A DNA stretch of 58,860 nt, the filler included, from Sphacelaria rigidula (Eukaryota): assembly GCA_964200075.2 (NCBI GenBank). It is 7 parts of 7 records of this genome, joined end to end, with 100 filler letters (N's around TTAATTAATTAA, not from the genome) between each part and the next. Parts side by side here need not be neighbours in the genome. Positions count along the whole stretch, not along the records: positions 33,694 to 42,016 come from CAXNAA020011523.1; 6 more parts are not named here. The stretch is one strand, 5' to 3'. The position numbers and the translations under genes were made by a program. Positions 8,325-53,623 of the stretch are shown one piece after another (positions within the stretch are counted from its first letter, which is position 1; each line of letters begins with the position of its first letter). Under the pieces are notes generated by a model. It was not told where the DNA came from, ran no database searches, and worked only from the letters and a program-made list of their open reading frames with translations.

Positions 8325-8424
8325 NNNNNNNNNNNNNNNNNNNNNNNNNNNNNNNNNNNNNNNNNNNNTTAATTAATTAANNNNNNNNNNNNNNNNNNNN
8401 NNNNNNNNNNNNNNNNNNNNNNNN
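8325..8424. other. Artificial 100-nt contig spacer (N44-TTAATTAATTAA-N44)
   Basis: Identical spacers occur at 8325-8424, 16748-16847, 25171-25270, 33594-33693, 42017-42116 and 50439-50538. The intervening segments are 8322-8324 bp in decreasing order, as expected for length-sorted contigs. Confidence 0.97.
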
Positions 8425-18623: not shown

Positions 18624-18744
18624 CGCCGCCGACCCGCTAGACTGAAAACCAGCACATGATATACCTGTTTTCTGTCCGACACCGGACGCGGAACTACTGG
18701 CCCCTTGATCCGTTGAGGAACTTGATCCGTTGAGGAACTACTAG

Positions 18745-19245
18745 CGGGTTAACTGGCCCCTGGTTCGCCGGAAGGGTAACTGGCCGTGTGTTCACTGAGG
18801 TGGCAACTGATCCTACGATCACTGGTGGAATACCTGTCGTCGTGTTCACTGGAGGGGTAACTGGCCCCATGTTCAGTGAAGGGGTAACTGGCCCCATGAT
18901 CACTTAAAGGGTAACTGGCCCCACGGTCACTACTGGGGTAACTGGCCCCACGGTCAGTGAAGGGGTAACTGGCCCCATGATCACTTAAGGGGTAACTGGC
19001 CCCACGATCGCTGCTGGGGTAACTGGCCCCATGATCACTTAATGGGTAACTGGCCCCATGATTGCTCAAGGGGTAACTGGTCCCACGGTCACTGAAGGGG
19101 TAACTGGCCCCATGGTCACTCAAGAGGTAACTGGCCCCACGGTCACTGAAGAGGTAACTGGCCCCATGGTCACTGAAGAGGTAACTGGCCCCATGGTCAC
19201 TGAAGAGGTAACTGGCCCCACATTCATGAGTGGCGTAACTGGTCC
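18745..19245. repeat. 27-bp tandem array, ~14 conserved plus ~5 degenerate units
   Basis: Unit is approximately ggggtaactggccccatggtcactgaa at an exact 27-nt period (18857, 18884 ... 19208). It is open on the minus strand as (DHGASYPxS)n in ORF 18749-19582. Confidence 0.95.
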
Positions 19246-20245
19246 CTGCCGCATGCAAAATTGGCGTGGCTTGTTCTAATGTGCCAGGGGTTACTCTTGT
19301 CGGCGGCGCTACGCCGACCGCCTGTGAGAGCGACACTGAATGGGTTTTTGCTATCTGGTGGGTTACGCGATCGTGTCCTGAGTTAACTGACGTGACAAAC
19401 TGCTGAGGACACACTGATACCCCGTTTCCTTTGTAACCCTGATTCCCCATGTGTTCACAACCCCGGTCGCAAGGCACCGCTACCTCTGTCTGCTCTACAT
19501 CTCTCACCATGAAACACGGTCGCTGGGACCGACCCAGGTGAAGGTGCCCCGATAAGCCCCACGGGCCTAGAGGCGTCCGCAAACATCGTGCTTACGTCGC
19601 TACCCGCTTCTCCTGTCAATGTCGGCCCTGCCGGTGGGCAGAGCCCGCGCCCTCATCCGCTCCCGTTTCCTCTCCCGCCGGCGGCGCTACCCTCCCGTCC
19701 CCCGCCGCGCCCTCCGTAGCTGTGTGAATACCGTGCTACCGGTGCCGGGGCGGGCGCCGATTACTGGTGCTGGTGAGCAGGTAGTTGTTGCACCTGAGTT
19801 CGTGCCTGCTGTGCCGGGGTTGGCGGAGGCTGCGGGGGCGGGGGCGGTGGTGGTGTCTGGGCTGGCGCCGGCGCTGTCGGCGTCGGCGTAGACTGCGCCT
19901 GCCCGGATGCCGGTGGGGACACGATATCGTGTGAAAACCTGCAGTTGTTGCGCGTGCAGGGTTAGTTCTGCCAGTGGTGAACGAAACATCCCTCGGAGTC
20001 TGCCACTGGGCCTTTCTCTGCACGAAGGTCGACGGGGGTCCCACCGGCGTGGAGTTCCTCGAAAAGGGGGGAACTGGGGGGCCTGCCTGCGACGTCGCTT
20101 TCCGTTTTTTGTTTGGTTTTGCCTCGCCGACCGGCCAGAATGCGGACTTCTCGACGACGATGGCTTTTAGTTTTGTACAAGCCGGCGCCGCTACCGGCTC
20201 CCTCGTCATCGACGGCGAAACTACGGCCGGGCATGTCCTCCGGAG

Positions 20246-21133
20246 CTATGGTGCCTGAAGTGCCACCCGGTAGAAGAACTCCTCTATGCCGGTGTCCATG
20301 GCTGTTAGAAGCTTGTCGCGGACCGTCGTTTTACGTGGGTACAGTGATGTGTAGTGATAATCTATATACTCCCTTACTTGGTTAGCTACCCATTCGAACT
20401 TCGACTGAAGGGCGCGCGTGCGTGTCTTGCATAACTCGGGAGCGTACTCCATGGGGGTGAGCAAAATCGTGAACAGGGACGCGACAAACGTGTGAAAATG
20501 CACATCAGCCGGCATGTCCACGGGGGTCGAGCCTGGTGGCACCGTTTTTTTCAAGTATATTGTCTTGAAATTGGCCAGGGTTTGCAGCTGGTTGGCGGAC
20601 GCGTACGTAATGTGAGCCACCTTCTTGAGCGTGATTTGTCGTAGGTGGAAAGTGATATCTTCGCTCACATCAACGCCCCCCCTCAGGAGGAAAAACATGG
20701 GCCCAGTGGTGGCCCGCCACGAGTCGACGGCACGTTTGGCATTTTCTTTTACATCAGCCTGTTCAGCTGCGGTCCGTTGTGCCGCCGCCTGCGCGCCAGC
20801 TGCTGAAACCTGCGGTTGTGGTGGTTGTTGCCACCCGTTCCCAACCTGTAGCGGTGGTTGCTGCGGGGGTACCTGCGGGAGTTGTAGCGGCTGCGGCTGC
20901 TGGTTATTGTCGACAGCCTGCAGGCGATTGGTCAACTGGGCCAATGCAGCCAGTACGTGTTGCTGGAATACCTGCTGTGACATGACGGGTGCTTGCAGTA
21001 CGCCCTGAGGTTGGTCGACTGCCGCTGCTGCTACCGCGTGTGGGTTATTATGCCCTGCCATCCCCTCGCCGCCTTGGTGTGCTTGGCTCCCGCCGCCGGC
21101 TATGGGAGGTCCACCGGCCCCCACCCCAGCCAT
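20246..21133 (-). CDS. Putative Gag/ORF1 of the DIRS-like element
   Basis: 295-aa ATG-started ORF with a G/A/Q/P-rich N-terminus and a helical C-terminal half, upstream of and co-oriented with the RT. Confidence 0.6.
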   Translation of the reverse strand: MAGVGAGGPPIAGGGSQAHQGGEGMAGHNNPHAVAAAAVDQPQGVLQAPVMSQQVFQQHVLAALAQLTNRLQAVDNNQQPQPLQLPQVPPQQPPLQVGNGWQQPPQPQVSAAGAQAAAQRTAAEQADVKENAKRAVDSWRATTGPMFFLLRGGVDVSEDITFHLRQITLKKVAHITYASANQLQTLANFKTIYLKKTVPPGSTPVDMPADVHFHTFVASLFTILLTPMEYAPELCKTRTRALQSKFEWVANQVREYIDYHYTSLYPRKTTVRDKLLTAMDTGIEEFFYRVALQAP

Positions 21134-21489
21134 GCCGTCTTCATGTAGTGCCAGATTTTCATCTCCGCCTGCTTGAGCCGCGCCCCCGCCAATGCCAGAT
21201 ATGATGTAAAAGCCGATTGATCCTCTGCGAAGCGCGCTAGTTCTTGCGTACTTCGCCTTACTTGTGCTGCTTATACCAGTCGGCTGCTGCTAGATGAAGG
21301 CTACTCGTTGCTGGTGATGGTATCTGTACTCGTGTGTGCGGCAACCTAGCTGCGATGGCCAACTTTTCTACTGGCAGCGGCACTGCAGCTGAGAAACAAG
21401 GACAGACACCGTACCGTTTTTCTGTACGTACGTCCCACATTGTCAGAATTCGTACACGCCTCCGCAAACACCGCTTTCATACTGAACGC

Positions 21490-25170: not shown

Positions 25171-25270
25171 NNNNNNNNNNNNNNNNNNNNNNNNNNNNNN
25201 NNNNNNNNNNNNNNTTAATTAATTAANNNNNNNNNNNNNNNNNNNNNNNNNNNNNNNNNNNNNNNNNNNN

Positions 25271-29659: not shown

Positions 29660-30370
29660 ACATGGCGGCCGCAATCATCCTACCCTACCCGAGTATGGTT
29701 CAGTGGGCATACGACAGGGTACATGTGTACCACAGCAACACGATCAGCCCCAACGTCCTCAATGCGCACCAGGGCATCGCGATCACCTACAGCGCGCTGG
29801 CTGTGAAAAACAGCGCACGATGAGTGCAGCCGATCGCAATGATCATATGACGAGTACATTTTTGAACTGTGCAGCGGAGGGCTAAATCAAGTGGCTCGAT
29901 AGCAACGACGTTCAAAAGCCGTGTGGGCTTCACGTGGAGGCACTGCGCCATGCCACGCTCAGCTCAGGTGAGGGTTTGGATTTGTGCCCCCACACGCATG
30001 TTGGTTGTTGAATGCCGATTGCAATCGCCTGCTACGCTACAACACAATGCGAGTACGCACGATCGTGAAGACGGTCGTGCTGGTAGGGCATTCTGCCGGG
30101 GAGGTGACCGTGCTGCACTCGTGACACTACAGAGTGTCTTATAAATTGCACCGCAACAGTAGGATTTAAAATATGCGGAGGATCTCGGATATTACTTGAG
30201 TACAATATAGAGGTCTCCGTAGTCGCCGCACAAGTCAGTAACGGTAACTGGTAAAGGATAGTATGAGGCGCACACTTCGAGTGGAACCCAGCGCCAATGA
30301 AATGCGACCTTGGTGTGAACTATGCAGTAAAACACGCTGGTGATTGGCTCGCAGACTCCAGTCACACCTA
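29660..30370 (+). pseudogene. Highly decayed PIF/Harbinger (DDE_Tnp_4-type) nuclease, probably intron-containing
   Basis: Frameshifted motifs in the expected order: GF-VDGT-like (ggcttc..gtgga-ggcact, ~29925-29944), KTVVL.(D)GI (~30070-30095), G-DLGY (~30177-30192), R..EW (~30270-30285) and L.IGSQTPV (~30340-30363). Confidence 0.5.
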
Positions 30371-31349
30371 TAGCCTACGTTCTACAGTACAGGAGTGAAC
30401 AATACAGTAGAGCCGGGGCAAATACAACAGCAGCATAGAAACGAAGCGACAAGCAGACCAGCAGACAGCGAGGGTTACAATGCCACCCCAGGGGGTCATT
30501 GCGATGCTCGTGTTTCTGTATACTCCCATCTTAGTGTGGCTGGTTGTGTCTTCCCGCCGCCGCTACTGCTGCCGCCGATGCCAGCTGCAGCGGCCCCCAC
30601 GCTGACGGGTGCAAGCAGCACCACGGCTTTCCCCCCCTAGTTCTTCGCCTTATTAAAAACGGATCCTTAGTGTTTGCCGGGTGCCGATCTTGAACGCTCG
30701 GCCATAATCGCCCTTCGCGCAAAAAGAAATCATTCACTACAGAATCATCCTAGTATTACCCGTCAGGTTGGGCCGATCTCACCAGATCGCGGTTGGGGGA
30801 GAAAACACCTACGCAATGATCGAAATCGCCGTGCAAGCGATGGCATCCTGAACTCTCGTCCCTCGCGCATCCACGTATACAGGCAAGGAACGGCAGACCA
30901 AGACTTTTACCGACACAGCTTCTGCCGTCTAGAATCGGTGGGAAACCATCAAGAAGGAGGTCAAACAAGACCTAGTCGCCGTTATTGGCAGGTGAGGATC
31001 TGCGATGTTTTCGTGGGATCGGGAGTAAAGGATAAGAGAGTGAGAAGCGGTGAATCAACGAATGAATCGTTTCGGTTCCGAAATGTACCGCGAGGCCCGA
31101 TTCGCTTTTTGTAGTAGCTTCTCACTGAAGCCCTTGATATCCCTCAGTAGGACATCGACATGTAGCTATACGCACACGCCAGTATTACAGGCAAAGACAA
31201 GCACGAACAGAATGAAAAATTGGTCAACAAAAGTGGATGATAAAACCCACTCTCAATCAACGCTCTACTCTTAATCTCAAAACATATTATTGATCGCGAG
31301 TTCGCAAATTCGAAGTTTATTCGGTGGGCGTAGGTGGACAACTCTAGTA

Positions 31350-32798
31350 TGTTTGCACCTTACGCTGGAGGGTGGAGTTCAGCGGCGATGCTGTCGTCAG
31401 AATGTACGCAGGAAGGAGCGGTTTGCGTAGGGGCTTTTGTGTGCAAGACGTCATGAACGGTGTATCCGAGGGCCGTTTCGTTGCGGACGATACACCGCAG
31501 CACAGGACGATCAGGGGACCACGATTGGGCTGCGCGGGAACACCAATCACCAGCGGGGAGCGCTGACGGGATCCGACCGCACCGCCGCAGTTTATTTCCG
31601 ATTTTATTTTGTCACGGTGCCGCTCGGTGCGCTTTTATTTCCGTGAAGCACAGATGTGCTGCTACCTTCCCGACCTATTGCATATACACTTGACCGCTAA
31701 TTGTGCGTTTGACTGACGCCGCTGCCGTTGTTGTATTTTCTCATGCAGCAAAGTAAAGGTTGGCGACAAACTTCCCTCCGGTTAACAAATGCCGGATCTC
31801 ATGGGGCGTCTTATGGTGCATGTCTGGACTGTTACGCAGAGAAAAACGATGGAGGATTGGAAGAAGCGGCAATCGCAGAAGACGGTGAGGAAAAAGTGTG
31901 ACTCGACAGACATGTCGTTGAAGGGCGGCGAGGACGTGAGTCAGGGTGGGACAACCGACGGCGGGGCACGTGCGATGCCCAAGGACTGGGTTCCCCCTCA
32001 TCTACTCGTCTATGCCTTCTGGGGTCCGCAGAGTGCGGTTCCTGAGCAGGAATTCGACCTGCTGACCTCCAGTGGGCTGGATAGGAAGAAGCGGCGAGTT
32101 TCCACCTAGACCGAAGCTGGCACCCCCGCGGACGGAGACAGCGCCGACGATCCGCCGGTGAATGCCGTTGAGTCGCCGAAGGCAATGAAGAAGCTCGACG
32201 ACGACGGCGGCATGATGAGCCGCCGAAGCCTGTTGAAGGAGAAGAAGGAGAAAAGCGCGGAGGAAAAAAACGCGTCGCCATTTTCGCCGCACAGCGCGAT
32301 AAAACCATAACCGCAATGCAGGGAGCCGTGAAACAAGCGTCGCAACTTCGGGCAGAGGTTGCCAGGGTGGCGGAGGTGTAGGAGCACCACCAAGAGGTGC
32401 GCATGCTGCAGAGCAGCGTATCTGTTTTGAAGGAGCTAGGGAGAGCCGTCGAGGCGAAGGAGAAGCTGGCCGAGCTGCTGCAGATTCTGAACGGCACCTC
32501 GGTCGAGAACTCTGCAGCCGCTTGTACCGAGACCGTTGAAGTTCCAGCAAAATCAAAGCTCGAATCGCCCGGCCTACCTACCGACACCGACGTGACGGAG
32601 ACCCAACCAACCTCGGATGCGAGCGAATATCTGATTGAGGGCGACGGCTGTGGAGAGTATCAGTGTCCGCGCGGAGCTAGTCCGAGCAGCCACGTCGGGG
32701 TTGGAGAGGGGGAGGGAGGGCAAGAGCGTGCGCAGGAGAGGGCCGCAACAGATGTCCGCCATCGGAGGGACAATGCAGACCTCATCGACGTTGCCTGA
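31350..32798 (+). pseudogene. Decayed charged/coiled-coil protein, possibly the Harbinger accessory (DNA-binding) ORF
   Basis: Protein-like segments 31789-32109 (MPKDWVPPHLLVYAFWGP...RKKRR), a continuation with stops and a frameshift, and 32397-32798 (LKELGRAVEAKEKLAELLQIL). It lies next to the nuclease relic. Confidence 0.4.
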
Positions 32799-34351
32799 CT
32801 TTTGCCACACGGAGGGGTGCGGTTGTACGTCATTTGACTCCGTTTGTTTGTTCACGCATATATTTCCCTTCAAGTTTTTGTTTTTGATCTTGTCTCGGTG
32901 CTGGCTACGTTTGTTTGCGAGTCCGTTCCTTTATCCATGTTTTCTTTTGTAATGGTTTCATATTTTCCTCTACCTCTCTGTTTTGTCGACTAAAAAGCGA
33001 CTGAGCGAGGATGGGTGTGGTCTTCGGGGGTCGGTCGATGTGCGACAAAATCGCAGAAAAAGAGGAAGATGCATATTGTGTTTGTACGAGAGATCGGCGA
33101 AGCATTTGTTCCTTCGATTTTGTTCCACGGGAGTTCGTGGCCGGATTTTTATTCCCCTTTTTTGTTTTTGAAGTTTGGTCTGAGACGATTTCTTTTGTGT
33201 TCTATTTTCTATATTCATTTTTATCAAGCACACCCATTTTGTTGACCGCGTCAACATCGATGTAGCGGAGATGGGTGGGGCCTGTTTTTCTTTTCACAGC
33301 GAGTATTTCAATTTTGGTCTGTCTGGGGTACGTCTATCGTGTGACCACGGCTGGATCATGATCCCTGGGGTCCGTCAAAGCACGACAATCAATTAAATAA
33401 ATCAATTTCTATTTGATTCCTCACGAGCACTAGCCCGGATTGCTGCACCCTCTCCTGAAACCTGTCGGTTGAACTGTCTCGCCGGATTTTCGGCCATATA
33501 ACGGCCGATGCCATAAGATATGTCGCGGCTATACACGGCAATTGGTCTACGTGCGAAGGAAAGGAAGGTGGAGAAGGAATGGTGCTTGGGGGGNNNNNNN
33601 NNNNNNNNNNNNNNNNNNNNNNNNNNNNNNNNNNNNNTTAATTAATTAANNNNNNNNNNNNNNNNNNNNNNNNNNNNNNNNNNNNNNNNNNNNCCCCCCC
33701 CCCCCCCCCGAGGGGGGGGCTGGCGTAGACGGAAAAAAAGCACAAAAACAAAAAAAGAACCCCCCCCCCCCCCCCCCCCCCCCCCTATGGCCGGCATGAC
33801 CCACTCGTCATCCTCCGCCACATCCCACCCCTTCTCTTCAACACTACCTATCTCGTCATCGCCACCTTCTCCATCCACCACGGTCTACCTGAGGTTCGGG
33901 TTGGGGCTGAGCAGCTTCCAAGCTTGCCAACCATGGGCGTCTTGAACAAAAACTCGCGTGAAGGCGCCTTCGCCACTACTACTCGCATGTGTCCGGTGCA
34001 CTCTTTTTTACGGGGGTACAGCTACACTCTTTCTGGGGCAGTCCGATCCGCTCCTACATTTCGTTCGTCGTACAGTACAATAATACTTGCTGAGAAAGTC
34101 ATCTCATCTTGAAAACCCGAAATGAAGTAACGCGGGAGATATGGACTAAAACCTGCACGAAGATTTCCAGTTCTTCGGAAACCTGACCAAGACATTTTTG
34201 CGCACGATGAAAAAAACATAGGCGATGACTGACGTACCACCCCCCCCTTCTTTTATGTGAGCTGTTTGAAGCAAGCTCGCTCACCTGCATGCAGCAGTGT
34301 GCGGACGCGCAGGTGGCCACTGTATCGCGAGGCGTCGTTGCCGTTAGTTAG

Positions 34352-34460
34352 CCCTTTGACTGCGAGCGGTGGTCGCTTGGTCAATCGGCATTACTTTTAT
34401 TCCTTTGTCGAGTGAAAGGTTATGACGAGTCACGAATGAACCACGCTCACAGTCAGAGGG
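34352..34460. mobile_element. 109-bp piggyBac-like MITE
   Basis: ttag|ccctttgactgcgagcg ... cgctcacagtcagaggg|ttaa: CCC/GGG termini with a TTAA-type TSD (left copy TTAG). Confidence 0.7.
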
Positions 34461-34818
34461 TTAACATATCCGTAATAGGGCACAAGAAAAGACATCGGTA
34501 CGCTACAAGGTACTCGACAACCATGACCACTCGGTAGTCGACGGAACTTCTTTTGAGCCGCCCGCGAACCGCCACTGCGTATCTCACGCGGCAACAATTT
34601 GAACGGACGAAGGCCCATTGTTTCCTGCCCAGCCCACTACAAGGTGGATGCTACAGGCAGATTTTCACCCTGTCGTGGCCAGAACGAGGGAACAAAGAAT
34701 GGTGCAGCAATCGTTCACCCAGCATTGACCTTGCACCAGGGATGTGCTCGATCCGACCGCTGCTGTTGCTCCCGCGACAGAACCGCACCTTGTGCTGACA
34801 GAATAAAATACCGTACGG

Positions 34819-35763
34819 TCATAGACCGAAACGTTTTGAGAACGTTATCACGTTCCTGCCTCGCCTATAAGACACTTGCATACCCTCTCCTTGCCACGCC
34901 CAGCTCTTCCCCGGGCGACTCGCTGCGTCCCATTCAAACTTGCTTATACTGTGCAGGATCCTCCACGACTTTGCGTCTCCCTTCGAGTCCAGTGCGGTCA
35001 TGACGACGACTCCGGTCCGGCCATTCGGAGAGCCTTCGCGTAGTTTCTCTAGAAGAAGCTGGCCGTGTGGACCCCTGCATCCGCTCGGGATATCAGTAGC
35101 GGGGTTGTTGGGTAGTAGGTTACAGCTGAATAAGGTAACGGTAATCCGGCGTCCATCGACGATAGAGTACTGCGTGCCCTTCCCTCGCCAAGCCCAACTT
35201 TTATCTAGACCCGTTGCTAACCGTTCGGCCTTGGGCCGATCAAATATACTCCAATCGGCACCTGTACGTCTCATTCCCCACACGTAACCTACTCCGTTTC
35301 GACCGTTTGGATACGTTCGTTTCAGCGCCTCGAGGAGACACGTACCCTGAGGGCTCAGGCAGCCACTCGGCACGGGCGGGTCGACGGACGGACGAGCTGA
35401 TCGTGCTGCACGAGGTTTCGACATGTGTGTAAAGGTAACGGTGTTCCTTCCCCCTTCACGAGACACCTCCATACCCTCGCCTTGCCACGCCCAATTCTTC
35501 CCCTCCTCCGATGCGTTCCATTCGATCTTGGTCCTACTATAAACAATCGTCCACCTCTTGCTACCACTACGCTTTGGAGAGTTTGTGTTCATCATGACAG
35601 CCACTCCGTTTCGGCCGTCCGGGTAGCGTTGTCGTAACTTTTCCAGCAGAAGCGGGCCGCGCGGGCCCTTGCTACCGCAGGAAATGAGGGCGTCCGGTGG
35701 GTCGTCATCGGGGCATTTCGTGGACTCTGGCGAAGAGGAACTGCTTGGTGATAGGGTATTCAT
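34819..35763 (-). CDS. Hypothetical protein with three tandem copies of an unrecognised ~85-aa domain
   Basis: Open frame of 327 codons, with the first ATG at 35763; it could instead be a large exon. Repeat consensus is G..(G/S)P.G..LLE.L....P(N/D)GR.GV ... W.I ... K(S/N)WAW.G.G...S...GR...(V/I)T. Confidence 0.8.
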   Translation of the reverse strand: MNTLSPSSSSSPESTKCPDDDPPDALISCGSKGPRGPLLLEKLRQRYPDGRNGVAVMMNTNSPKRSGSKRWTIVYSRTKIEWNASEEGKNWAWQGEGMEVSREGGRNTVTFTHMSKPRAARSARPSVDPPVPSGCLSPQGTCLLEALKRTYPNGRNGVGYVWGMRRTGADWSIFDRPKAERLATGLDKSWAWRGKGTQYSIVDGRRITVTLFSCNLLPNNPATDIPSGCRGPHGQLLLEKLREGSPNGRTGVVVMTALDSKGDAKSWRILHSISKFEWDAASRPGKSWAWQGEGMQVSYRRGRNVITFSKRFGL

Positions 35764-36192
35764 AGCGGGTCTTGACACGGAAGTTATTTTCACTGGCGGC
35801 ACGACGTAAGGAGAGCAGCACAGTGGACGTGAAGCACGGGCAGATGTTTGTTAACTGTGCAACGGAAAGATTGAAATCTGGTTCAGTGTCAGCATGCACG
35901 GTGATTTTCACAACAACGAAATGCGCCGGGTGTGGAGCATCCTGCACAATAATCGGTGACAGCGGCTGTGAAAGTCTAAAGAAAAGGGAATACAGAAAAT
36001 AGATAAAGCAAGCTAGTACAGTAACCTTTACGCATATACTGGCGTATGTAGTTAGGTAGGGTCACGTTTGCTATTAAACAAACCGAAAAAAAACCTGCAG
36101 TCCTGAACGGGTCAAAGAGAAAATACACAGACAGCGACCAGTACAACATCGAATAATATTCACTCCCATGTGCTGCTCATAGTAAAGGTAAA

Positions 36193-36744
36193 ATGGAAGT
36201 TGAAACATTGTTCTACACACAGCTAGGCAAGAATGAGGACACGGGGAAGGCCGCGCCTTGTGCTACGGAAACAATCAGTGTAAAAAAAACCTTCTTGATC
36301 ATTTCGGGACAGATGTCTCGAACACTTTTTCTTGCGGGACGTTTCTCCGAAATCTGCCGTTTTGAAAATGAGAAATTTCTCATCAAAAGCCATTTCTCGG
36401 CTATCGTTTTGGAAATGCCTCAACTTTTCAAACGGTATGCCAAACACGCCTCCATATGCACGCTGCAGGTCAGGAATATGGAGTGTGAAGACCCTCTGTG
36501 TAGATCTGACGACATCATAGCAGTTGGGTTGGCCATGGTACATCACATTTACAACAACATGGCGATCGCGATGAATCAGATGGCCGTCGACGACCACATC
36601 ACATTGTTGACGTTTTTTCGGCGACAAATTGCTGATTACTTCGACACCGCTTTGTCCCTGCGATGGAGGCTTCGTGGCTGCGCCACAGATCTTCTGCGTG
36701 ACACGACGTGTATGCCATTCTGCCTACTGTACTGTCGTCCATGA
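36193..36744 (+). CDS. Hypothetical ORF (183 aa)
   Basis: ATG-started open frame with no recognisable motif; it may be spurious or a TE fragment. Confidence 0.2.
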   Translation: MEVETLFYTQLGKNEDTGKAAPCATETISVKKTFLIISGQMSRTLFLAGRFSEICRFENEKFLIKSHFSAIVLEMPQLFKRYAKHASICTLQVRNMECEDPLCRSDDIIAVGLAMVHHIYNNMAIAMNQMAVDDHITLLTFFRRQIADYFDTALSLRWRLRGCATDLLRDTTCMPFCLLYCRP

Positions 36745-38150
36745 CCAACTACAACCCCGCCTCTGAATACTCGTGCCTGCCAGTTGGCGCGCAAGATTTG
36801 AACCCAACGATATGAGAAGCGGTGTGCGAAGAAATCGCGTGAAAACAGAGCGTAAAAAATATATAACTATTCCTTCCTAACTATTTGCATGTCTCTTCAT
36901 ATTCCTCGAACTTCCAAAGGGTCTACCGGAGAGACCACGTGTCCCGGTCACCGTTCATAGATAAATAAGCATTTGTCGGTACTGCCGTTCACGTTTAGTT
37001 GATTATACCCGTGTGCCGATGCTTGGACATGTGCTGTAGAAGCACAGCTCTTGTAACCCGTACATTACTGGTTTCTCGTTCCATTCAACCCGTGCCATCC
37101 TCTTGATGTCGTATGATAAATCTGTGTATCACTGACCCGTAGTATCTACACAAAATACAAAACACATGACCTGAGCAACAGGTGAGTAATGTTGCGGGGA
37201 AGTGAGGGGTCAACGCATTTACTGCACCGCATGTCGCACACGTGTAGGTTCTTCGGCACGAGCGAAGCCCCATTACTGGCCCGAAGAGCTATTATACTAT
37301 GCTCTTGAAATCTTTGTCAGTTCAAAACTGGAAACCTAAACTATCGCGTGGAACTAAATTTCAGCTGATCCACCCACCGAGGCAAAAGGGCTGACTCATT
37401 CATCGTCAATCAACGCGTGACACCTTTCGGGAACTGCAGACCTGAGGCGCAGCGTCGGCTACACCCGCCTGCTACAACCACACATAATCAACCAGCTGCT
37501 AGAGAACTGAATTTACCCTGTCTTGCTCTACGATCTTGTGTCGCATTTGTCGGACTGGAGGAGACGTATATCCCTCTCGCCAGTAATTAATTAAACGAGA
37601 GGCTATGACGCCCTTTTCAGTAAAATATTTTGTAAAATCAGTCGCTGGAGTTTCAGACGTTGGCCGCATGGCAACAGTTTTGATTTTTTTGGTGTACTGG
37701 ACGTCAAGGGTTCGTTGATACGCGAAGAGTTTGTGCGGTTAGCACATGTTGGATGAGCTTCGCACAGTTGACAAATGTTCCCTTCATGCCGAAGAATTGA
37801 ACTTTTCATATTTCAAGATGAGGGCAAACATTCTGTATATTTTGTTTGAGATAATTTGTGGGGTATTGTTTAGAAACCACGTACAGCTGAGTTTTGTCAT
37901 GCGCACAGAGGAAATTAATGTGTTTCGTTGCCACTGTCAAGGAACACCGCGACATAAGATGAAGACACATTCGAACTCCATCTAGACCATCTTTCTTCTG
38001 CTTCATCAGTGCGATTTTCGTCATGATCTGAGGCAGCTCATCACACAGCTCCGGCGTCGTTGTACACCTCCAACTGTCTAGTGTTCATCGCTAGTGTGCA
38101 CACTGCGCCACTCTATTTAGCATTTTCACATACCCATAGCCAAAAAAATC

Positions 38151-40849
38151 CAGGGCTCTTTACGTTGCACGTTACACGTTACGTCACAAATGTGACGTAT
38201 GAAAATTATACGTCATGTCACATCACGTCACATTTTTTCACCCGTACGTCACGTCACGTCACACTGGTGACGTCTTGAAAAGTTATACGTTACGTCACGT
38301 CACAGTAACGTATTTTGAAACGTTTATGGTGACGTGTAACGAATAATATACGTTACGTTTGTGACGTGTAACGTATTTTCGAACGTCATTGTGACGTGTA
38401 ACGAATAACATACGCTACGTTTGTGACGTGCAGCGCAAAATGAAACGTTACACTTCGACCATGTTGAGGGCAAGTGAACGCTACATACGACGTTGTAAGG
38501 TTTCATGTAGCGTACCTTGGTACGAGAGGTTCACGGTGGCTGCCTTGTTCGTGCATGAGGCGCGTTCTGCTCTCTATTTTGACGTGTAAGAATGCGTTTC
38601 AGCTAGTGTATCGCTGATACGTCTCTGACTCACACGTTGCAAATTCAAATAAATACCTGTACCCTGTACATGAGTACGTCATCGATGCACGATAATCAGA
38701 TAGTGAGATACCAAGATGCGCGCAGGCCATGATGTGCACATGCAAACGCAAGTATTACACAGATCACGTTGGGGATACCTGGTGGTCGGTTGGCATTTCG
38801 TAGAACACCCAACACATAGCAATCCGATTCTATAATGTTATGACTAATTGCTCACTTAGCAGAGGGTGTATGCTGAAGATCTGTTTCTATATATTACACA
38901 TAATAAACTGATGATCCGGTGCGAATCCAGCCGCATTCGCAGGGCGGACATCATGAAGGTACTGTAGAATCACATGATGACTCATCGTGCCAAGAAGAGA
39001 GACAAAAGCTTACACAAAACCGTTCAAATAGAGAAAGACAGCAGAAAAAGAGAAAAACAAAACAACACCAACAACGTAAGAAAACGGAGCAAAACCAACT
39101 AAACAAAAAACAAAACTACAGAACAGCAGTGGAGTCACCGAATTTGTCCACGAGGTCACAAGCTCCTGTCGCCCTTCGCATCTCTTCGAAGTCACAAGGT
39201 CTCTGATTACTTCGTAGTTCTTATTTTGCCGTGTCATACTCTGAAGGGGAACCCTGGGCCGCGCTCATCGTTACGTTACACGTCGCTCCCGCCCCGTCTG
39301 TACTTTCGAAGTTGGTTGAAAATTTGAAATTCGGAAATTCGGAACTCGTATTTTCAACAGCCTGGATTCGTTTTTAAGGTTCAACATTTGGGTGGGGTTC
39401 AACGGACCATCGAAATTCCATTTGTTTTGTTCAAAAAGCTCGAGATTCGCAAACGGTTTCGACCATGTAACCCTAACCCAGAAGTTTCTGCACGGCAGCG
39501 CAAGCATGATAATGAGCAGTCCAACAGAAAAACCGCCGTCATTCATTGTCCTGCATGTTTTTAGCAGGACCTGCGTCTAAGCGCTATGGAACACGTAGCA
39601 AAGCATGCTGAAAACATACTTCTTTGGACTAGTCATCGAGTTTTCGAGCGCCTCTTGTTTTCGAGCGCCTCTTGTTGAGTATCTGAGAGAGACTTCATAC
39701 TGTTGCGCTGGCGACGACCGCCGTCAGCGAAACGATCCAATGCGGGGACAGACTCCAGCGATCTTTGAAACACAGCATCATTCAACAGTCTGCTGAGATA
39801 TGCCATCACCAGAGTACAGCATTACCACTACAGTACAGTCGATAAAATGGATGCCCCACAATAAAGCTGCAGACACACACAACGGGGGTAAGGGGTAGTC
39901 CCACCCTTGGGGTTGTTTCGTCAGTAGTGCCCATGCGAGGCGCTTCATCCAGTCTGAACTAGCTAATACGCCTTGTATGGCCACCTCCGCCGTGGCTGTG
40001 TTGAGAACCGGTTTCGCGGTGAGGCTTTCGAACAAAACTACTGTAGTTCAACGCGCTTGCAAAATCCGAGCCGTTTCTTTTAATTTAGAACCTGCATCAG
40101 CTGTAGTTTGAATATCCCTCCTGACGATCCCAATCGGGGTCTGATCCAGGGGCGGGGAGCGCTGGCACCCTCCCCCTCAAATAGGATTTGTGAACTACTG
40201 TGGGGGTATTTGGGAAAGATCGCTCGGGATGAAACATGTAGAATTGTATTCAGGGGTATCGTGGTACATACTTCCCTATCCAAAATCGAAATTTCCTTCC
40301 TTGAACGCTTTATACCCGTTACAATGAACGACTGCTTTCCAAAAAAACCATCCGTAATTTTAGGACTTCCCCTGGGGTCGAATCCTAACGCTGAACTTGC
40401 GCTTACATCGCGTGCGTATTAATATTATGATGACGTATGCAAACTCTTCTTGAACCCATGTATCATATCATACGAGTATCACATATGCTAATCTCACACT
40501 AATTGTGGTACAAGTTGAGCGTGTGACGGTTGTGACGTTTATACAGACGTCACAAACGTGTAATGTGACATGTAAATCGTATTGTGACGTGTAACGTATA
40601 AAATACGTGAGACGTTACAATAAACGTTTCAAAATACGTTAATGCGAGGTATATAGAAAAAACTCACGCGTTACATTCGTGACGTCTTGAAATTTTTTAC
40701 GTCACGTCACGTCACATTTCTTCACCGGTACGTTACGTCACGTCACACCCTTGTGACATCTTCGAAAAATACGTAAGTCACGTCACACCCTTGTGATGTA
40801 ACGTTTGTGACGTGTAACGTACGTGTGAGGTATACCGTGAAGAGCCCTG
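38151..40849. mobile_element. hAT-type DNA transposon derivative (2.7 kb)
   Basis: TIRs cagggctctttacg and cgtgaagagccctg. 8-bp flanks aaaaaatc and aaaaattc (one mismatch) fit a hAT TSD. ACGT/GTCAC-rich subterminal arrays lie at 38160-38500 and 40520-40830. No intact transposase. Confidence 0.85.
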
Positions 40850-42254
40850 AAAAATTCGAGGACTCTAACGAAAAATTCCGACAGACGCATACCACGGTGG
40901 GGGGTGCACAAAATATGTCTTAGGTTTAAATTGTTAGGAGCCTGTCACCTCATGAAAAAAACGACCTATGAAAAAACCACATGAAATATGTGAGAGCACA
41001 TCACGATTAGCCTCACAATTGGCTACGGAGATCACGAGGGAATTTTAGAACGAAATTATTATTACCCATATTCTTGTGTGCGGCTCCTAACTTCAGGAGC
41101 CCCTCAATGAGAAACATCTGGGCCCAAATGTGCAACCCCTACCGTGTCGTGCATCAACAACAGGTAGCTCTACAGTATGTGAGAGTACGCTAGGATTACT
41201 ATCCCAATGTGCTAGGGATGTCCCGAATAAATTTGCAAACGGGGGTGCTCTGGTCCATATTCTTGTGAATCTAGAACCTTCAGGAGCCTCTGACCCAAAC
41301 AAGATTTCGCGCAAAAAGTGCACCTCTACCGTAGCATTGCTCGTTGGTGCATAGCGTTCACCTTGGTGAACCGCCTAGTTATGGCATACGTAGACAAGTA
41401 GGGAAACATGCGCCGTGCTACTGTAGGGTCAAGAGGCTACGGTTGCGCTTAGCACTGGGTCGGAGCTAGTCATGGTTAAGGCGCATCTAACCGGGGTCGA
41501 AAACATAGTGAGCAAATCAACCGTACGAAAGCAGCATGCTGCTTGGTTGCTGCAATATCGCCCCGTCGGGTGTGTCGCGACGGATCAATATCCTGCTTTT
41601 GGGCGCTTTTTTGCTCTCGATTTTTTTTTTTGGTCCCGTGAAGATGCGCCTTTACTGGGGTTACGATCAAGGATATATCTGCGGTCTGCACGACACACGA
41701 GCGACGATGCTAGGCGGACGGAGATTATCTTACACTGAGAGTACGCAGTCACAACGTTTCTCACGGAAGCAAGTGTACTCATCATCCAAGAACAGAGGAT
41801 TCTATCAAATGAGGTTCATCAATGAAATGAGGTTCGAGCTCAAAACAGTATTTTCTCCACGCTTTCAGCGATGGTGCCCAATAACTTTCTTGTCGGCCTA
41901 ATGCCCCTCGATCGCGTAGATACTTCTTAATTAAGCGCATTTTATCGACTCTGTGAGCTTACAGCGCTGTCCGAAACCACCATTTCTACTTATTTTTTAG
42001 GGGGGGGGGGGGGGAANNNNNNNNNNNNNNNNNNNNNNNNNNNNNNNNNNNNNNNNNNNNTTAATTAATTAANNNNNNNNNNNNNNNNNNNNNNNNNNNN
42101 NNNNNNNNNNNNNNNNAAACGTGGGGTACTTGTGCCGAAGGTGTTGAACTTGGCTTCATGCTACGAGCCTGTGTTTGAGGCATTCCAATGACACGAAGTG
42201 AAGTTGGTTTCTGCTGCGGGTAAAAATTCGACTAACTGGTTTTGTGCGACTCCG

Positions 42255-46689: not shown

Positions 46690-47903
46690 AAAAAACGTCC
46701 ATGCATTTTGCTAGAAAAACGACAGACGACCATATGGAAGAAAAGAGGCAAGAGTTCCAAAAAGAGATGGCCAAAACTGCAGTGAACTATTGCGAGATGT
46801 TGGAACACGTAGGTACCGCTGATACCGAAATGGAACGAAATCGGGCAGGAGCGAAGATCATAGAAGGATGGGAGCAGATGGTGCAGAACACAGCGAGTAA
46901 AGTCAAAGGGAGGAAACTGATCGTGTGCAACAGAGCCGTGAAATGGTGGCATGAGGAAGTGAAATAAGCTATCAGAATAAGGAGGCCCACGCGAGGTGGA
47001 TGTCGAGAAAAATTACGGGAGGGTGGGAGGAGTATACTAAACCTTGGAAGGAAGTAAAAAATATGGTACAGATGAGGAAGAAGGAAGTTTGGGAAGGTGT
47101 AGTAAAAAACCCCTGAAGATTTCGACCGCGGGATAAAACAGATGTGGGCAGGGATAAAAGCGATAACGAGAAACCAGGCAGGAAAGAGGGACAAGAGATA
47201 ACCACACTACGGGCACAGAACAGTAAAATGGTCAGTAGTTGGAAGGGAAAGAAAAAAGTGCTAGTCGAGCACTACCGTGAACTAGAAACACTAGAAACAA
47301 CCACGGAGTTCGACATAGAATTCGAAAAAGAAATCAACGCGTGGGCAGAGGCCAACGTAGAGACGTCGAAACGGGAGGATAGTGGCTCGAAAGAATTACA
47401 GAGAGGGTTTACTAGAGATGAAGTAAAGGAGTACGTAGCTGAACTCAAGAACAGAAAGACAGCAGGGACAGACGAAATAGTGAATGAGTTTCTGAAGTAC
47501 GGGAGTGAAGGAATGGTTACCATGATGATTATGCTGTACAACTGGATCTGGGAAAACGAGTACACACCCAAGAGGTGGAGAGAAGGGGTACTCGTCAACC
47601 TTTTCAAAAATGGAGACAAGGCTGACCCAGGAAACTTTAGAGGGATAACGCTACTAAGCACCGTAGGGAAAATATTCTGTAAGATTCTGAACGATAGAGT
47701 AGGAAATATACTAGAAAAGGAAGAGAAAGTCAGCGAGGCACAAACAGGATTTAGACCAAACCGTAGTTGCGTAGACCATGGGTATCCACTGAATAAGGTC
47801 ATTCAGGGTAGGAAAGACACCGGACGGACGACGTACTATTTCTTCCTGGACGTACAGAAGACTTATGACACAATATGGAGAAATGGGTTGTGGAAAACGT
47901 TGT
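46690..47903 (+). pseudogene. LINE (non-LTR) reverse transcriptase, 3'-truncated
   Basis: KWWHEEV, KTAGTDEIVNEFLK, WREGVLVNLFKNGDKADPGNFRGITLLSTVGKIF, QTGFRPNRSCVDH and FFLDVQKTYDTIWR. Homology ends after GLWKTL, before the QG and YADD motifs. Confidence 0.92.
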
Positions 47904-48984
47904 GCACGATTTGGCCGACTAAACTCGTGATTCAACTCATAGAATCATTTCAACGAATAGATCATACTATTCGTACATCATTTGCCATTTATATATCTTC
48001 TCAGCTCGTGCGTCGTGCAGTACGTGTCAAAGGTACCTGCGCCCTACCTTCCGTGAATACCGGGGTAAATAAAGGGCATACCGTCAACCTCTGCGGTGCA
48101 AATTTGAATGCATCGATTGTACATGCCACCCACTTCTCACCATCATGAATCAGGAACGTCATGTACAACTTGCTTGACCGAGTCGTTCGAGATGACCGCC
48201 AGTATATCTTTCCCACCTTCGGGTTATTTCGGGACCAACAATTGTGATGGTAAATGACTGTGTCTGAATTAGAAGTAGTTTGGGATTTGCGGATGCCCAA
48301 AAACGACCGACGAGTATGGAAAGATTCTAGTCGAATGTGTGTTGTGGTAAGGCAGGATTTGGATTGTTTTTTATTGTTGACGCAGCTGGTTGAAGGTAGA
48401 TAGATTGTACCCGATCAGCCGCGTGTACCTGCTGCTACTACAGCGTTGTTTGGCTAAAGGCACAGCACGGTGATTTTGTATTATGACGAAGTTGTGAGCG
48501 GGGCAGACGGACGTACCGATAGAACAGCTGCCCCCAGCTGTTCTACCCACCTGTCTTCACTCGACACATCGACCTCAGTCTGCAGGCATTATTGGATATA
48601 AAGAAGAGCTTTTACTCGTCATCTACCCATCGATCTCCTGTCGTCAGTGTCGCGAGTCCACAGCCTTACTGACGTGAGTCTTAGCTGTGCTGTATTTCTA
48701 CCCTCATCCACAATTGTTACTTGTTTTCTGGCTTTGAGGCTGTGTGGTTTCCCCCTTTGACAGCTGGGTTATTGTATTGAAAAAATGGAACAACAGTTTG
48801 AGTGTAGCAAGTCAATCCAGGACCGCTTGCAGACACCTCACAAGGGTGTGGCTTGGTTGCGTTCGGCGTATACGGTTTTACTGCTTGCGGTATTGCCTAT
48901 ACTACCACACAATTTGTACAGGTTTCATTTCTTCATTTCATGGGGAGTCAACATAACACCATGCACACCCGGCCATTTGGCTCG

Positions 48985-49320: not shown

Positions 49321-50538
49321 ACTCAAAGTTATCATTAGCGGCGCGCGAGGAAGAATTACTCGAGGTAAAAAACAACCGTTTTCAACCGCAAACATGCGGT
49401 CGAAAGAGACGAAGCGGCACTTATTGACTTCGATCTTGCAGACCACCGCAAGCTCAATCCAACTCATTCTCAGCTACCACCGCAACCCTGCAACATAGAG
49501 CACGCGTTGAGCCCAGGGATAAAAACACCCCAGTAGTCGGGTGTGCCTTCTTTATTTTTTGTTGGCGAAAACTTGCTCATCTTCTCTGATGGTAGGGAGC
49601 AGCGACGGAATTGCGCGGTGCGCTGGACATCGGAGTTGGGTGCACGTACAGAGCTGCACGTTGCTCAAGTCCTTTTCACGTCGCTTTGTAAGCAGAGAGA
49701 ACTGATAGTCCTAGGCTGTCTGCACTGCACTTTGCTCGCTTCTCTTTTATATCCTTTTGTACGAAACACGCACACACGCAGTCAAGACACTGCTCGCAAG
49801 CAGTGCAGACGGTACAGACTACTGTCTATACTGTACACGTTCGACCATGTATCGTTTCACGAATCAAGAGTGGGCAACGTGCTACTGCAAGGAAGCTTGT
49901 CATTTTCCATACCTTTTTCGTTGTCTTACACAAACAGAAAAGGTACATGACAAAGAGCCGCCGGTTCAATGTCACGCTTTTCTCAAGCTGCAAGGAAGCT
50001 GAACAATCACGAGCCCGATGACCCCAACTATGCTTGCTGGTGCTGTTCGGGGCATCTCTCCCAAGCCGGGACGGAGCACGCCGGGTTTTCGCTGGACCAG
50101 CCTCGCAATTAATCATCAAGCACGAAGCCCCGTGATGTACGTTTCGCACATCGCATAAACTGTGAGTTCCATCTTGCTTAGTTCTGCCCAGAGCCTTGTG
50201 AACACCTCACGTATAATTTTGGTGACACGCAGCCACAGTGTGTAATTCGTGAGACGACCGCATACTTAGAGCACCGCATCGGAATTTGAACATCCCTATA
50301 ATTGGGTTTAGGGTTCGGGGAGGGGGGCGGAGACACCGCTGGAACGTGTACGTAGAGCGGTGTGGGGAATGCGGTATGCCGACGATGCCGGCATCATCTC
50401 GAGATCCCCCAACGGACTGGCGAGGATGATGGACATCANNNNNNNNNNNNNNNNNNNNNNNNNNNNNNNNNNNNNNNNNNNNTTAATTAATTAANNNNNN
50501 NNNNNNNNNNNNNNNNNNNNNNNNNNNNNNNNNNNNNN

Positions 50539-50916: not shown

Positions 50917-51669
50917 TTAGTCAAGCAAAGCTAAAAGTGCTTCTTCGGTTTCAGCAAAAGAGAAAACTTTGTCCACCCACACTTTACAATCTAGACCTCG
51001 CGAGATGTCAGTCGGCACACTTTGGAAATACGCCGTGGCGTTCAACACGCCCTGCGGGACACGAGTAGGCGTAAACAAACCGTCCGGCGTGACGATCGTG
51101 AGGATGTCCTGAGCCTCCGGCGCTAGAGGCACCTGCCAATACCCCTGTAGCAGGTCCAACTTGCCGAAGCATTGGGCTACCAGCAACTCCCGCACGTCTT
51201 CTTGGCTTGGCATCACCCCCAGAGACTGTTCCACTTGCGCGTTCACCGCCTGATAGTCGCTGACCAAATGGAATGTGTCACTTTTCGGCACCGCCATCGC
51301 CGGGCTCGCCCACTCAGCTTGGATGTTCCTCACCACTAAACCAAACGCCACCAAAGCTGCGATGCATGAGGCACACCACCCGGTCTTCACCGGATCGTAC
51401 CGTCTGGTCTTGGCCTTCACCGCATTTGCCTGGGGCTTAAGCTGCACCCTCATGGGCTCAACGCGCGCTGGCGGATCACCACGCAGCGCACGGCGAAATG
51501 TATCTATGCGACGAGCCAAAATATCGCGCAGACAATGTGCGCCATCGGTGCTCAGACCCTTCTGCTCGGCCTGCCGCATACTATCCTCAAGCGCACGTGT
51601 CCGTGAACATATCCGGCCTCCGATCAACCAAGCGCTCCACCGCTTCATCAGCAGGATCCTCGTCCTCAT
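50917..51669 (-). pseudogene. Gypsy reverse transcriptase fragment
   Basis: Canonical Gypsy RT motifs with the catalytic motif mutated, followed by a stop. Confidence 0.9.
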
Positions 51670-53623
51670 TTTCGCTCTGGAATGACCGTATGGATACGAT
51701 CACACGCCTTGCAGCAAGGCAACTGGGCTTTTCCACGCCGGTTTGCACCGGCACAGCACGCGGACGTAACTTCTCCAACGCCAGCGGATATAAATCAATC
51801 CCAAGCTCCTTGATTGTCACCATCCCAAATAGAACCACGTTTTCCCTACCGGGCATGACAGCGAAAGTAATGGGCTGCAACTGCACAGCCCCCCACGACG
51901 TACCCACGCGAACAGTAATTAATTGGTACCTTTTCGTGTGTAACCGTCACGGGAGCACCCGTGGCGGTCTGCGTCGTTTGCGGTCCGTTTTCAAAGGGAA
52001 TCTGAAGCTGAGCGCCGCCAAACTGCGAAGAAATTTGCTCAAGCAACCCCACACCGATCGATGTGAGAACGAACCCAAAATCCAGAATAACGCGGGCCAT
52101 GAACGAACCTACAGAACCAGGCAAGGCTAAATCTGCGCGTAAGCATGCAGCCTTGCGATCGACAGGTACCAAGCCTGCCGGAGAACCCTGTTCTGTCCCA
52201 AGAGTCACCTGATGTCAGGGCTGCCCTCCAGCACTTGGCATCGGTAGCTGCGAATCGTCGGTCCAACCAGACCAAGTCGCCGAATATGCAGACGGTGCTA
52301 TTACAGCTGTCGCAGCCGTAGGGAATGCACCAGACACGGATCATGCCTGGCCGAGGGGTTGTGAGCTATTCGCTCCAGCACTCCCCACCGGAGTATTTGC
52401 ATTTCCCACGTGCACTATTCGCCCTGCTACGGGCGAACCATAAGATTCAGAGTCACCACCTGACGGCGAGTTGGAAGAAACAGCAGCGGAGGAACCACCA
52501 TCCACCGCCGATTGCTTGCTACCGCGGCGCGCGCCCGCGTCCCTGATTGGCAAGGCCCCGTCCACCGTGACAACCGCCCCGAGATCCTGATAAACCTCGT
52601 GCATTGCCCTGTGCCGCGCCTTGAGCACGAGATTTGAGGCAGTCCTTGATCATATGTCCGGTGTTGCCGCAGTTGTAACCCGCGCGAGTGGACGACTCTC
52701 GCGAAGACGGCCGCTGTCTCTGTTTCTGTTGCTGTTTGCGACGCATACCACCTGCACCTGTTGCAGAGTTGCGCCGGCCATGTGCTTCAATAAACTTCCA
52801 CTGGTCGACCGCCTCGAATATGTTTTTGAACGCCACCGTCGGGTTTGTTTCCAGCCGTCAACATACGATAGTACACTTCTGATATACGCCTTGGATTCCG
52901 GGGGCGAAATCCCCTCCACGAAAGCTATGGAAACCGACTCGGCCGGGCCAGGCAACCACTCCTGTCCTCCGCACGGCACCTTGCTTGCACCATCAGACTC
53001 TGTGCAAAACACCATTCCATATCTGAGCTAACCATCACAGCACGATCCTTCACGGACTTTCCATCGCTTTGCTTCATTGTAAGTACCTTACGCAGGTCTG
53101 CTGCAGCCCGCGTAGCGTCATGCTTTCCACCGGTTGTAGTACCCCCGGCATGCTGCTTGACAGCATCAAGCAATTCATCGGGGGTCAAAGCTCGACCGTC
53201 CTTGTACATGTCTTCGAAGCAGCGGTGAATGTAGACAGGAATGAGTTGCCTATGCTTACTCTTTCATGCCGTATAATTCCTTCTGCTTTCGCTAGACTCC
53301 ACCGCTGTATGTATTCAATGTATCTTGCAATTAGGACCCGTAATGCTTCCTCGGTCCACACTTCACCATACTTTGGCGGCTGTAGTGACTCACCCTACAC
53401 CAGCGGCGCTGCCGCCGCTTGAGCCACGTCGTCTATGCTTCAAACACTTCACGGAGAGACTCTTGCCTGACTTGTGCGTCCTCCAGCTCACGGAGCGTCC
53501 CCCTCTGCTGTGCGCTTCAAGCTGGTCTCCTCCTGTCTGCGGGCTGAACTGGCTCTAAGCTGCAGCCCACTTTTCCCCGCCTAAATTCTCCAACAGAGTG
53601 CCGGAAGAATAAAATCTAGTTAT

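Follow-up and report, generated by a model that had tools for sequence, protein, structure and literature searches.

A functional gene encoding a new domain family is very likely present in the 58,860-nucleotide (nt) stretch of the Sphacelaria rigidula assembly GCA_964200075.2 analyzed here (hereafter the window). It is represented by an open reading frame (ORF) on the minus strand, at 34819..35802, in the part of the window that comes from CAXNAA020011523.1, and this ORF carries three tandem copies (R1, R2, and R3) of a Trp/Gly-rich domain of about 85 amino acids (aa). On the evidence of its sequence, the domain has no match among described families and represents a new protein family, carried by a lineage-restricted gene. 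The repeats have been conserved at the protein level since they duplicated, and a transcript-like contig leaves the genome at a candidate splice site at the 5' end of the frame. Taken as a whole, the locus is probably a genuine nuclear gene, one very probably expressed and spliced, for which the multivalent binding of polyanions is the favored role.

Three conserved repeats in an intact frame

The ORF search returned a minus-strand frame of 327 aa with the same span in which the original prediction, made from the sequence of the window, had seen an intact, stop-free frame of 327 codons. From stop to stop, the frame occupies 34819..35850 and comprises 343 codons. When the 8323-nt segment was simulated 500 times with a first-order Markov model, 1 simulation reached this length, and the longest frame averaged 158 codons (standard deviation, 30). 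The predicted span stands, but the predicted start does not, as the 327-codon frame begins at GTG, which is permitted by translation table 11 and is not a eukaryotic start codon; the coding sequence probably begins in an upstream exon. The first in-frame ATG, the sole candidate start within the window, lies at 35763 and reads ATA in the DNA data set X9. The protein is basic and aromatic, as had been anticipated, with an isoelectric point (pI) of 10.1 and 12 Trp residues, and the individual repeats have pI values of 9.9-10.6 and 4 Trp apiece. Ahead of R1 lies an acidic, low-complexity stretch (35683..35796; Table 1) with a pI of 4.4 and 9 Ser and 8 Pro in 40 aa.

The description of three copies of about 85 aa, joined by Pro/Ser linkers and with key residues kept while the rest diverges, agrees with both the BLASTP alignments and the conserved columns. 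R1 and R2 share 41.0% identity over 83 aa (E 2.6e-15), R1 and R3 53.6% over 84 aa (E 2.4e-29), and R2 and R3 41.3% over 80 aa (E 1.8e-14), and 27 columns are invariant among R1-R3, including those of the LLE.L, P.GR.GV, and WAW.G.G motifs. At the DNA level, the repeats are 50-63% identical, with a 61-nt direct repeat, 79% identical, between R1 and R3. The proportion of synonymous differences between pairs of repeats (pS, 0.56-0.75) exceeds that of nonsynonymous differences (pN, 0.29-0.42), and the ratio of nonsynonymous to synonymous substitution rates (dN/dS) is 0.25 for R1-R3 and 0.54 for R1-R2, dS being saturated for R2-R3. The low dN/dS, together with the near saturation of synonymous sites, implies that the duplications are old and that the protein sequence has been conserved since. 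Protein-level constraint on the domain is therefore observed in the comparison among the internal repeats. The earlier suggestion that the pattern of divergence reflects selection is upheld by these ratios and by the retention of the key residues in two homologues from outside the window, described below. No further copies of the domain were found in the window, either by tblastn or by hmmsearch of 1348 six-frame ORFs. Contigs of X9 and of a second DNA run, X1, show approximately 85% identity to portions of R3, of R2, and of the end of R1; the DNA runs of the same organism therefore contain one or more multi-repeat paralogues or else a highly divergent allele.

Transcript evidence and gene structure

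A query of public sequencing runs with 34300-36300 returned 12 runs, and the stretch or part of it was present in 10 of these; one run carrying it is labelled 'algae metagenome'. The classification of a run as RNA is the guess of the search tool, no run being annotated as RNA, and the contigs show neither strand nor expression level. Contigs of four runs were aligned to 33800-38100, X4 being the only one of these from among X4-X8. X4, a small run guessed to be RNA, provides a 2079-nt contig with a depth of 87.3 that equals 33847-35796 with 0 differences and continues beyond 35796 for 129 further letters unlike the window. Its depth is zero over 35816-36391 and 36824-38100, which serves as a control within the test and indicates that the neighboring unique DNA is absent from the run. 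As X4 covers the exon at a depth of 87 without flanking DNA, an origin from RNA is by far the most economical reading. The DNA runs X1 and X9, in contrast, span the whole of 33800-38100, with contigs collinear with the window across 35796. Each of X4, X5, X6, and X8, which belong to one study, and X7, which belongs to another, holds 0.73-0.74 of the words of 34300-36300; this share equals the fraction of that interval lying below 35796, and for X5-X8 it points to the same break.

The genomic sequence at the break has the features of an acceptor site on the minus strand, where a pyrimidine-rich tract ends in CAG (…CTCTCCTTACGTCGTGCCGCCAG, followed by TG). The position of the junction is uncertain by as much as 4 nt (35796/35797 to 35793/35792), an uncertainty that would follow if CAG also closes the upstream exon, and CAG at the end of an exon is an established splice-site consensus. 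No GT is present on the plus strand at the break, which speaks against a donor on that strand. In the X4 contig, the 30 letters visible upstream keep the frame of the ORF, contain no stop, and include an ATG (SQDMGYQRHA-PVKITS…). These letters have no match in the window with 3 or fewer mismatches, nor do they share with it any word of 11 nt or longer, which implies that the intron is longer than 6.2 kb or runs off the segment. Assuming that X4 is RNA, there is good support for the ORF being the last exon of a spliced mRNA with at least one intron upstream of 35793-35796, and the location of the start codon in an upstream exon outside the window is likewise well supported. The locus is almost certainly transcribed and spliced. 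The original prediction had described the gene as intronless; this is contradicted by the X4 contig, which leaves the genome at 35796 by way of a polypyrimidine-CAG acceptor and continues in frame.

The break at 35796 could be explained in another way, with X4 representing DNA from a strain that carries a rearrangement or insertion at this position instead of a splice junction. The kind of run is only guessed, and the two bases immediately upstream of the literal break are CG rather than AG, with AG being obtained by allowing an overlap of 3-4 nt. We nonetheless consider this account extremely improbable. The absence from X4 of the unique flanks, set beside the depth of 87 on 33847-35796, is the pattern of a transcript, and the DNA of X1 and X9 is collinear with the window at this point. 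Moreover, runs from two studies have the same share of 0.73-0.74, the upstream letters preserve the reading frame, and the CAG overlap fits the exon-end consensus.

For the terminal exon, the 3' limit of 33847 represents the end of the contig only. Homopolymer C runs of 16 and 26 nt are found just past this end, at 33694-33709 and 33760-33785, and these, rather than a true poly(A) site, may explain why the contig stops at 33847. Two short stretches, 34352-34398, inside the 3' untranslated region (UTR), and 36439-36763, occur on many contigs with loose ends in X1 and X9 and represent dispersed multi-copy repeats. Separately, X10, a run guessed to be RNA and bearing the label of a different organism (organism B), contains a 152-nt contig identical to 35223-35374, part of R2, at a depth of 3.4. 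This contig could come from a close relative, or it could stem from carry-over or from a difference in labelling.

Relatives of the domain and described families

Relatives of the domain are few. When the whole ORF was compared with 5.8 billion protein clusters, none of the 1647 candidates scored. A profile of the three repeats searched against 1.84 billion representative proteins gave four matches at E<=0.001, of which two, P0001 (188 aa, E 8.5e-12) and P0003 (150 aa, E 2.2e-7), cover the full domain. Each has one domain copy, at its C-terminus, and each is a singleton without a name, the two coming from other assemblies, on contigs that measure 2.9 and 2.0 kb. All five copies agree at 15 columns (G, G, LL..L, P.GR..V, W, WAW.G, and T). 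A word-indexed search with the five-sequence profile recovered P0001 and P0003 only, out of 1982 candidates. The remaining two matches, P0002 and P0004, were rejected as relatives, as both are long, repetitive bacterial-type proteins whose scores derive from summed partial matches. P0002, a repetitive adhesin-like protein of 4994 aa, had 0 matched stretches, and P0004 is a Gly-rich repeat protein in which profile positions 38-80 alone were matched, seven times, and for which no Pfam match exceeded the cut-off. No match to the domain was found among the Ectocarpus proteins in the searched protein database, which implies that the family is either narrower than the brown algae or unannotated in Ectocarpus. 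The ESM Atlas returned no usable match for the ORF, and the best score for the domain of P0001 (0.87, 98 shared features) was below the level of a lead.

Searches of family collections with the domain were likewise negative. In Pfam-A, the whole ORF matched only Acb1, with a score of 12.4 bits (cut-off, 27), and when R1-R3, P0001, and P0003 were scanned separately (E<=10), the best match was again Acb1, at 14.7 bits against 27, no other family approaching its cut-off. The best match in PHROGs had an E value of 0.2, and a sequence profile search of the PDB gave 0 matches at E<=10. The original prediction of an unrecognised domain is borne out by the Pfam and PDB sequence searches, as well as by the fold searches described in the next section. 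In the available part of the literature on brown-algal orphan genes, EsV-1-7, and Ectocarpus repeats, no description of such a domain was found; the supplementary family tables of 10.1101/2024.02.19.579948 might list it as an orthogroup.

Several known systems nevertheless invite comparison. According to the available part of 10.1101/2024.02.19.579948, EsV-1-7 (PF19114), the best-known family of lineage-restricted repeated domains in brown algae, includes developmental regulators, is defined by a short motif rich in cysteine, a putative zinc finger, and is encoded by tens to hundreds of genes per genome. As far as that account extends, the EsV-1-7 proteins and the present protein are alike in being tandem-domain, nonenzymatic proteins with no biochemical role assigned, whose domain is largely limited to brown algae and their near relatives. 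They differ in that the present unit is about 85 aa long, is rich in Trp and Gly, and has no conserved Cys pattern, and in family size, the present domain having two outside relatives in 1.84 billion representatives. PF19114 was absent from the Pfam scans.

A second comparison is with PAN/apple modules, which comprise about 80-90 residues, place a helix on an antiparallel sheet, and often occur in tandem with a binding function; the present unit is of similar length, and its predicted fold and proposed role would give it a similar layout. PAN/apple modules are held together by disulfide-forming cysteines, whereas no conserved cysteine column was found across the five copies of the present domain, and the two have no sequence match. 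A third concerns YkuI_C (PF10388), a signalling domain that follows EAL domains in bacteria. A metagenome scan of 241 million records produced 253 pattern matches, of which 1 was confirmed, and this was a bacterial EAL-YkuI_C protein. It was rejected as kin, since it shares only the local motif W.I..S.EW……GKNWAW(Q/R)G, the very motif by which it had been selected, and it continues differently past that motif. An hhalign comparison gave a probability of 58.7% over 35 columns, which is less than half of the domain and carries a significance inflated by the motif-based selection. PF10388 (166 positions) was not listed by hmmscan at E<=10 for the ORF, the repeats, or the homologues.

Predicted fold

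AlphaFold2, applied to R1 with the five-sequence alignment, gave a model with a predicted local distance difference test (pLDDT) score of 72 and a predicted template modeling (pTM) score of 0.60. In this model, a short strand is followed by a helix at residues 9-19, which contains the LLxxL motif, and then by six antiparallel strands that carry W44, W55, and W64-A-W66. A single-sequence model of the whole protein was of low confidence (pLDDT 34) and placed a helix at the matching position in each repeat. The prediction of a complex of R1, R2, and R3 (score 0.02) gave no evidence on the packing of the repeats in either direction. The models weakly suggest, then, that each repeat consists of a strand, an amphipathic LLxxL helix, and a six-stranded antiparallel sheet bearing the invariant Trp residues (W44 and WAWQG).

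No described fold matched the model with pLDDT 72. Foldseek against the PDB had a best E value of 0.75, and Foldseek against BFVD one of 0.24. VIA-align against 48,161 chains returned a best Z of 3.2, with none at 5 or above, the weak matches including chains with cupin-like, AraC N-terminal, PAN/apple, and beta-gamma-crystallin folds. The PAN/apple chains (6o1g, Z 2.6; 7qox, Z 2.5; 2msx, Z 2.2; 1hky, Z 2.2) are at the level of noise. As the model is only moderate, and a weak or absent match is no proof of novelty, a new fold is not established.

Genomic setting

The window is a composite of seven segments of about 8323 nt each, separated by six spacers (N44-TTAATTAATTAA-N44) with a period of 8423 nt, and the true genomic context of the triple-repeat ORF is 33694-42016 only. 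A palindrome (I1) returned by the repeat search at 33588-33699 was discarded, as it is the spacer between segments and not a genomic repeat. The broken coding sequences with which the original prediction had contrasted the intact ORF are mostly retroelement fragments in other segments (Table 1). The reverse transcriptase (RT) ORF at 47117-48148 has proteins of Ectocarpus sp. as its closest named relatives, with 44-70% identity, which, like the 'algae metagenome' label, fits a brown-algal lineage. Within 33694-42016, a Pfam scan of 8 other ORFs gave no domain, the rest of the segment contained no Rfam family or tRNA, and no transposase, integrase, or viral hallmark was found.

It had also been proposed that the ORF is of viral, transposable element (TE)-cargo, or retrocopy origin. 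The retroelement debris in the window (RVT_1 and gag-protease-like ORFs), the short multi-copy repeats in the 3' UTR and at 36439-36763, the paralogue-like copy, and the presence of all three repeats in one exon could each be read as traces of TE cargo, of a past giant-virus (phaeovirus) insertion, or of a retrocopy. The retroelement ORFs, however, are in other segments, behind N spacers, and the segment itself has none of the hallmark genes named above. No pair of long terminal repeats (LTRs) or terminal inverted repeats (TIRs) brackets the ORF in 30000-41000, and the transcript-like contig, assuming that X4 is RNA, is spliced at the 5' end of the ORF, which speaks against both a retrocopy and a simple cargo gene without introns. 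Of 32 pattern matches in the viral contigs of IMG/VR, 0 were confirmed by tblastn, which, along with the null results for PHROGs and BFVD, argues against a viral source, no dedicated search of phaeovirus genomes being included. The spliced contig, the lack of terminal repeats, and the negative viral searches make an origin of this kind very improbable.

Two other parts of the window have features of their own. In the segment of the ORF, two clusters of short repeats of the ACGTCAC/GTGACGTGTAACG type, at 38217-38448 and 40581-40830, lie 2.2-2.5 kb apart. They are partly inverted, with 60-nt arms that are 83% complementary and 2234 nt between them, and contain a 62-nt tandem unit; the ORFs between the two clusters had no Pfam match. 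One possibility is that these clusters mark the two ends of a DNA-transposon-like element in the presumed intron or upstream region. In another segment, the minus strand of the GC-rich (0.55-0.57) interval 17265-21289 contains several long open frames (347, 280, 252, and 183 aa). A Pfam scan of the 347-, 280-, and 252-aa frames gave no match, and the interval could be another unannotated gene or an unfamiliar repeat.

Table 1. Positions of the features of the triple-repeat gene and of other elements in the window
Feature	Position	Strand	Evidence or remark
Inferred 3' splice site	35793..35830	-	Pyrimidine-rich tract leading to CAG (…CTGTGCTGCTCTCCTTACGTCGTGCCGCCAG, followed by TG…)
Terminal exon of transcript-like contig	33847..35796	-	Coding 34822-35796, stop, ~970 nt 3' UTR
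Acidic low-complexity Ser/Pro/Asp-rich stretch before repeat 1	35683..35796	-	In frame with upstream exon
Repeat 1 (R1), aa 41-126, 86 aa	35425..35682	-	Domain i-Evalue 7e-39, five-sequence hidden Markov model (HMM) that includes R1
Linker 1, 18 aa, basic, Pro/Ser/Arg-rich, MSKPRAARSARPSVDPPV	35371..35424	-	
Repeat 2 (R2), aa 145-229, 85 aa, most diverged copy	35116..35370	-	BLASTP, HMM
Linker 2, 9 aa, LPNNPATDI	35089..35115	-	
Repeat 3 (R3), aa 239-327, 89 aa, reaches C-terminus	34822..35088	-	BLASTP, HMM
Stop codon TGA	34819..34821	-	
Six-frame-stop spacers	8325-8424, 16748-16847, 25171-25270, 33594-33693, 42017-42116, 50439-50538		
RVT_1 retroelement fragment	47117-48148	+	Pfam E 3.8e-12
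RVT_1 retroelement fragment	50917-51699	-	Pfam E 1.2e-6
Gag-aspartyl-protease-like ORF, weak match	56539-57324	+	Pfam E 0.0013

Proposed role and implications

In the role that we favor, the protein would be a nonenzymatic, 'beads-on-a-string' multivalent binder, each of its three basic, Trp-rich modules contacting a polyanionic polymer. This guess derives from the basic pI, the Trp-rich modules, the Pro/Ser linkers, and the lack of a catalytic signature, and, resting as it does on features of the sequence, we would give multivalent binding roughly an even chance. Tandem arrays of carbohydrate- or nucleic-acid-binding modules on Pro/Ser/Thr linkers form a general class, which the present protein resembles in having small, aromatic-rich, noncatalytic modules on flexible linkers; the likeness is one of layout only and implies neither family nor ligand. 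An intracellular ligand would most likely be RNA or DNA, and we lean toward nucleic acid tentatively, as a possible ligand rather than a probable one, though one to be ranked slightly above wall polysaccharide. The lean stems from the readable N-terminal part, which is without a hydrophobic, signal-like core, and from the domain being without a conserved cysteine pair, as extracellular modules usually retain disulfides.

Several observations weigh against this interpretation of the gene and its role. The fold model was built on five sequences, and the five models scatter (pLDDT 72, 66, 42, 41, and 41), and the invariant Trp residues could form a hydrophobic core rather than ligand contacts. 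The family is tiny, with two outside members, both singletons on contigs of 2-3 kb. The RNA status of the X4-type runs rests on a guess, and the upstream exon was not located in the window, so the full protein and its N-terminus lie outside it. P0003 has a hydrophobic stretch near its N-terminus, at about residues 12-30, which fits secretion over an intracellular role. Finally, the comparison of X9 with the window shows at least 13 differences in the ORF, with at least 8 codons changed nonsynonymously and 4 synonymously, a pattern that gives no hint of strong constraint, and the ORF differences (~13 in 981 nt) are not sparser than those of the flanks (~22 in 2298 nt upstream and 5-6 in 972 nt of 3' UTR). 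Seven of these 13 ORF differences coincide with the paralogue-like contig and so could have arisen through conversion, or through mixing in the assembly, instead of from allelic change.

These counts and the presence of paralogue-like sequence would also be compatible with a locus that is transcribed but whose ORF has left selection, or has not yet come under it, that is, a decaying duplicate of a functional paralogue that has remained intact by chance. We find this improbable. The 343 codons are intact, which the simulations rarely matched, despite repeat duplications old enough for synonymous saturation. Furthermore, a contig depth of 87, reached in a run of small size, points to substantial expression, although contig depth measures this poorly, and the counts of single-nucleotide polymorphisms are tiny and partly confounded with the paralogue.

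The possibility of secretion raised by P0003 can be extended to the present protein, which may be secreted or attached to the wall, its modules being lectin-like or carbohydrate-binding units for alginate and sulfated fucans and its Pro/Ser linkers acting as spacers. The basic pI, the 4 Trp per repeat, and the linkers suit this account as well, the tandem layout of modules resembles that commonly seen in binding arrays outside the cell, and the genome is brown-alga-like, as judged from the Ectocarpus relatives of the RT ORF. The true N-terminus lies in the unseen upstream exon, where a signal peptide is possible. On the other hand, no hydrophobic core is present in either the 10 readable upstream residues or the initial 40 of the exon, which are polar or acidic in character, the domain is without a conserved cysteine pair, with no more than one semi-conserved Cys in any repeat, and no carbohydrate-binding family was matched in either the Pfam or the fold searches. 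Given this evidence, we consider a secreted or wall-attached protein unlikely, and an intracellular multivalent binder of polyanions remains the role that we favor.

A broader and doubtful reading is that the LLxxL-YPxGRNGV-W-WAWQG unit founds a new fold, restricted to a narrow brown-algal branch and occurring in single and triplicated forms, and represents a new class of multivalent polyanion readers, with RNA or DNA as the intracellular polymer or alginate or fucan as that of the wall. If this were true, brown algae would hold a lineage-specific binding module comparable in standing to EsV-1-7. The newness of the present finding applies to the protein family only, and no new kind of mechanism is shown. 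Families of this orphan kind are common among brown algae, and finding one in a eukaryotic lineage with sparse sampling is no surprise. A considerable proportion of the genes of brown algae are without an assigned function, and this locus defines a compact domain, constrained as judged among its internal repeats, that none of the sequence or structure resources searched could place. With its expression evidence, its single- and three-domain forms, and a unit of 85 residues, the family is a tractable target for structure and ligand studies.

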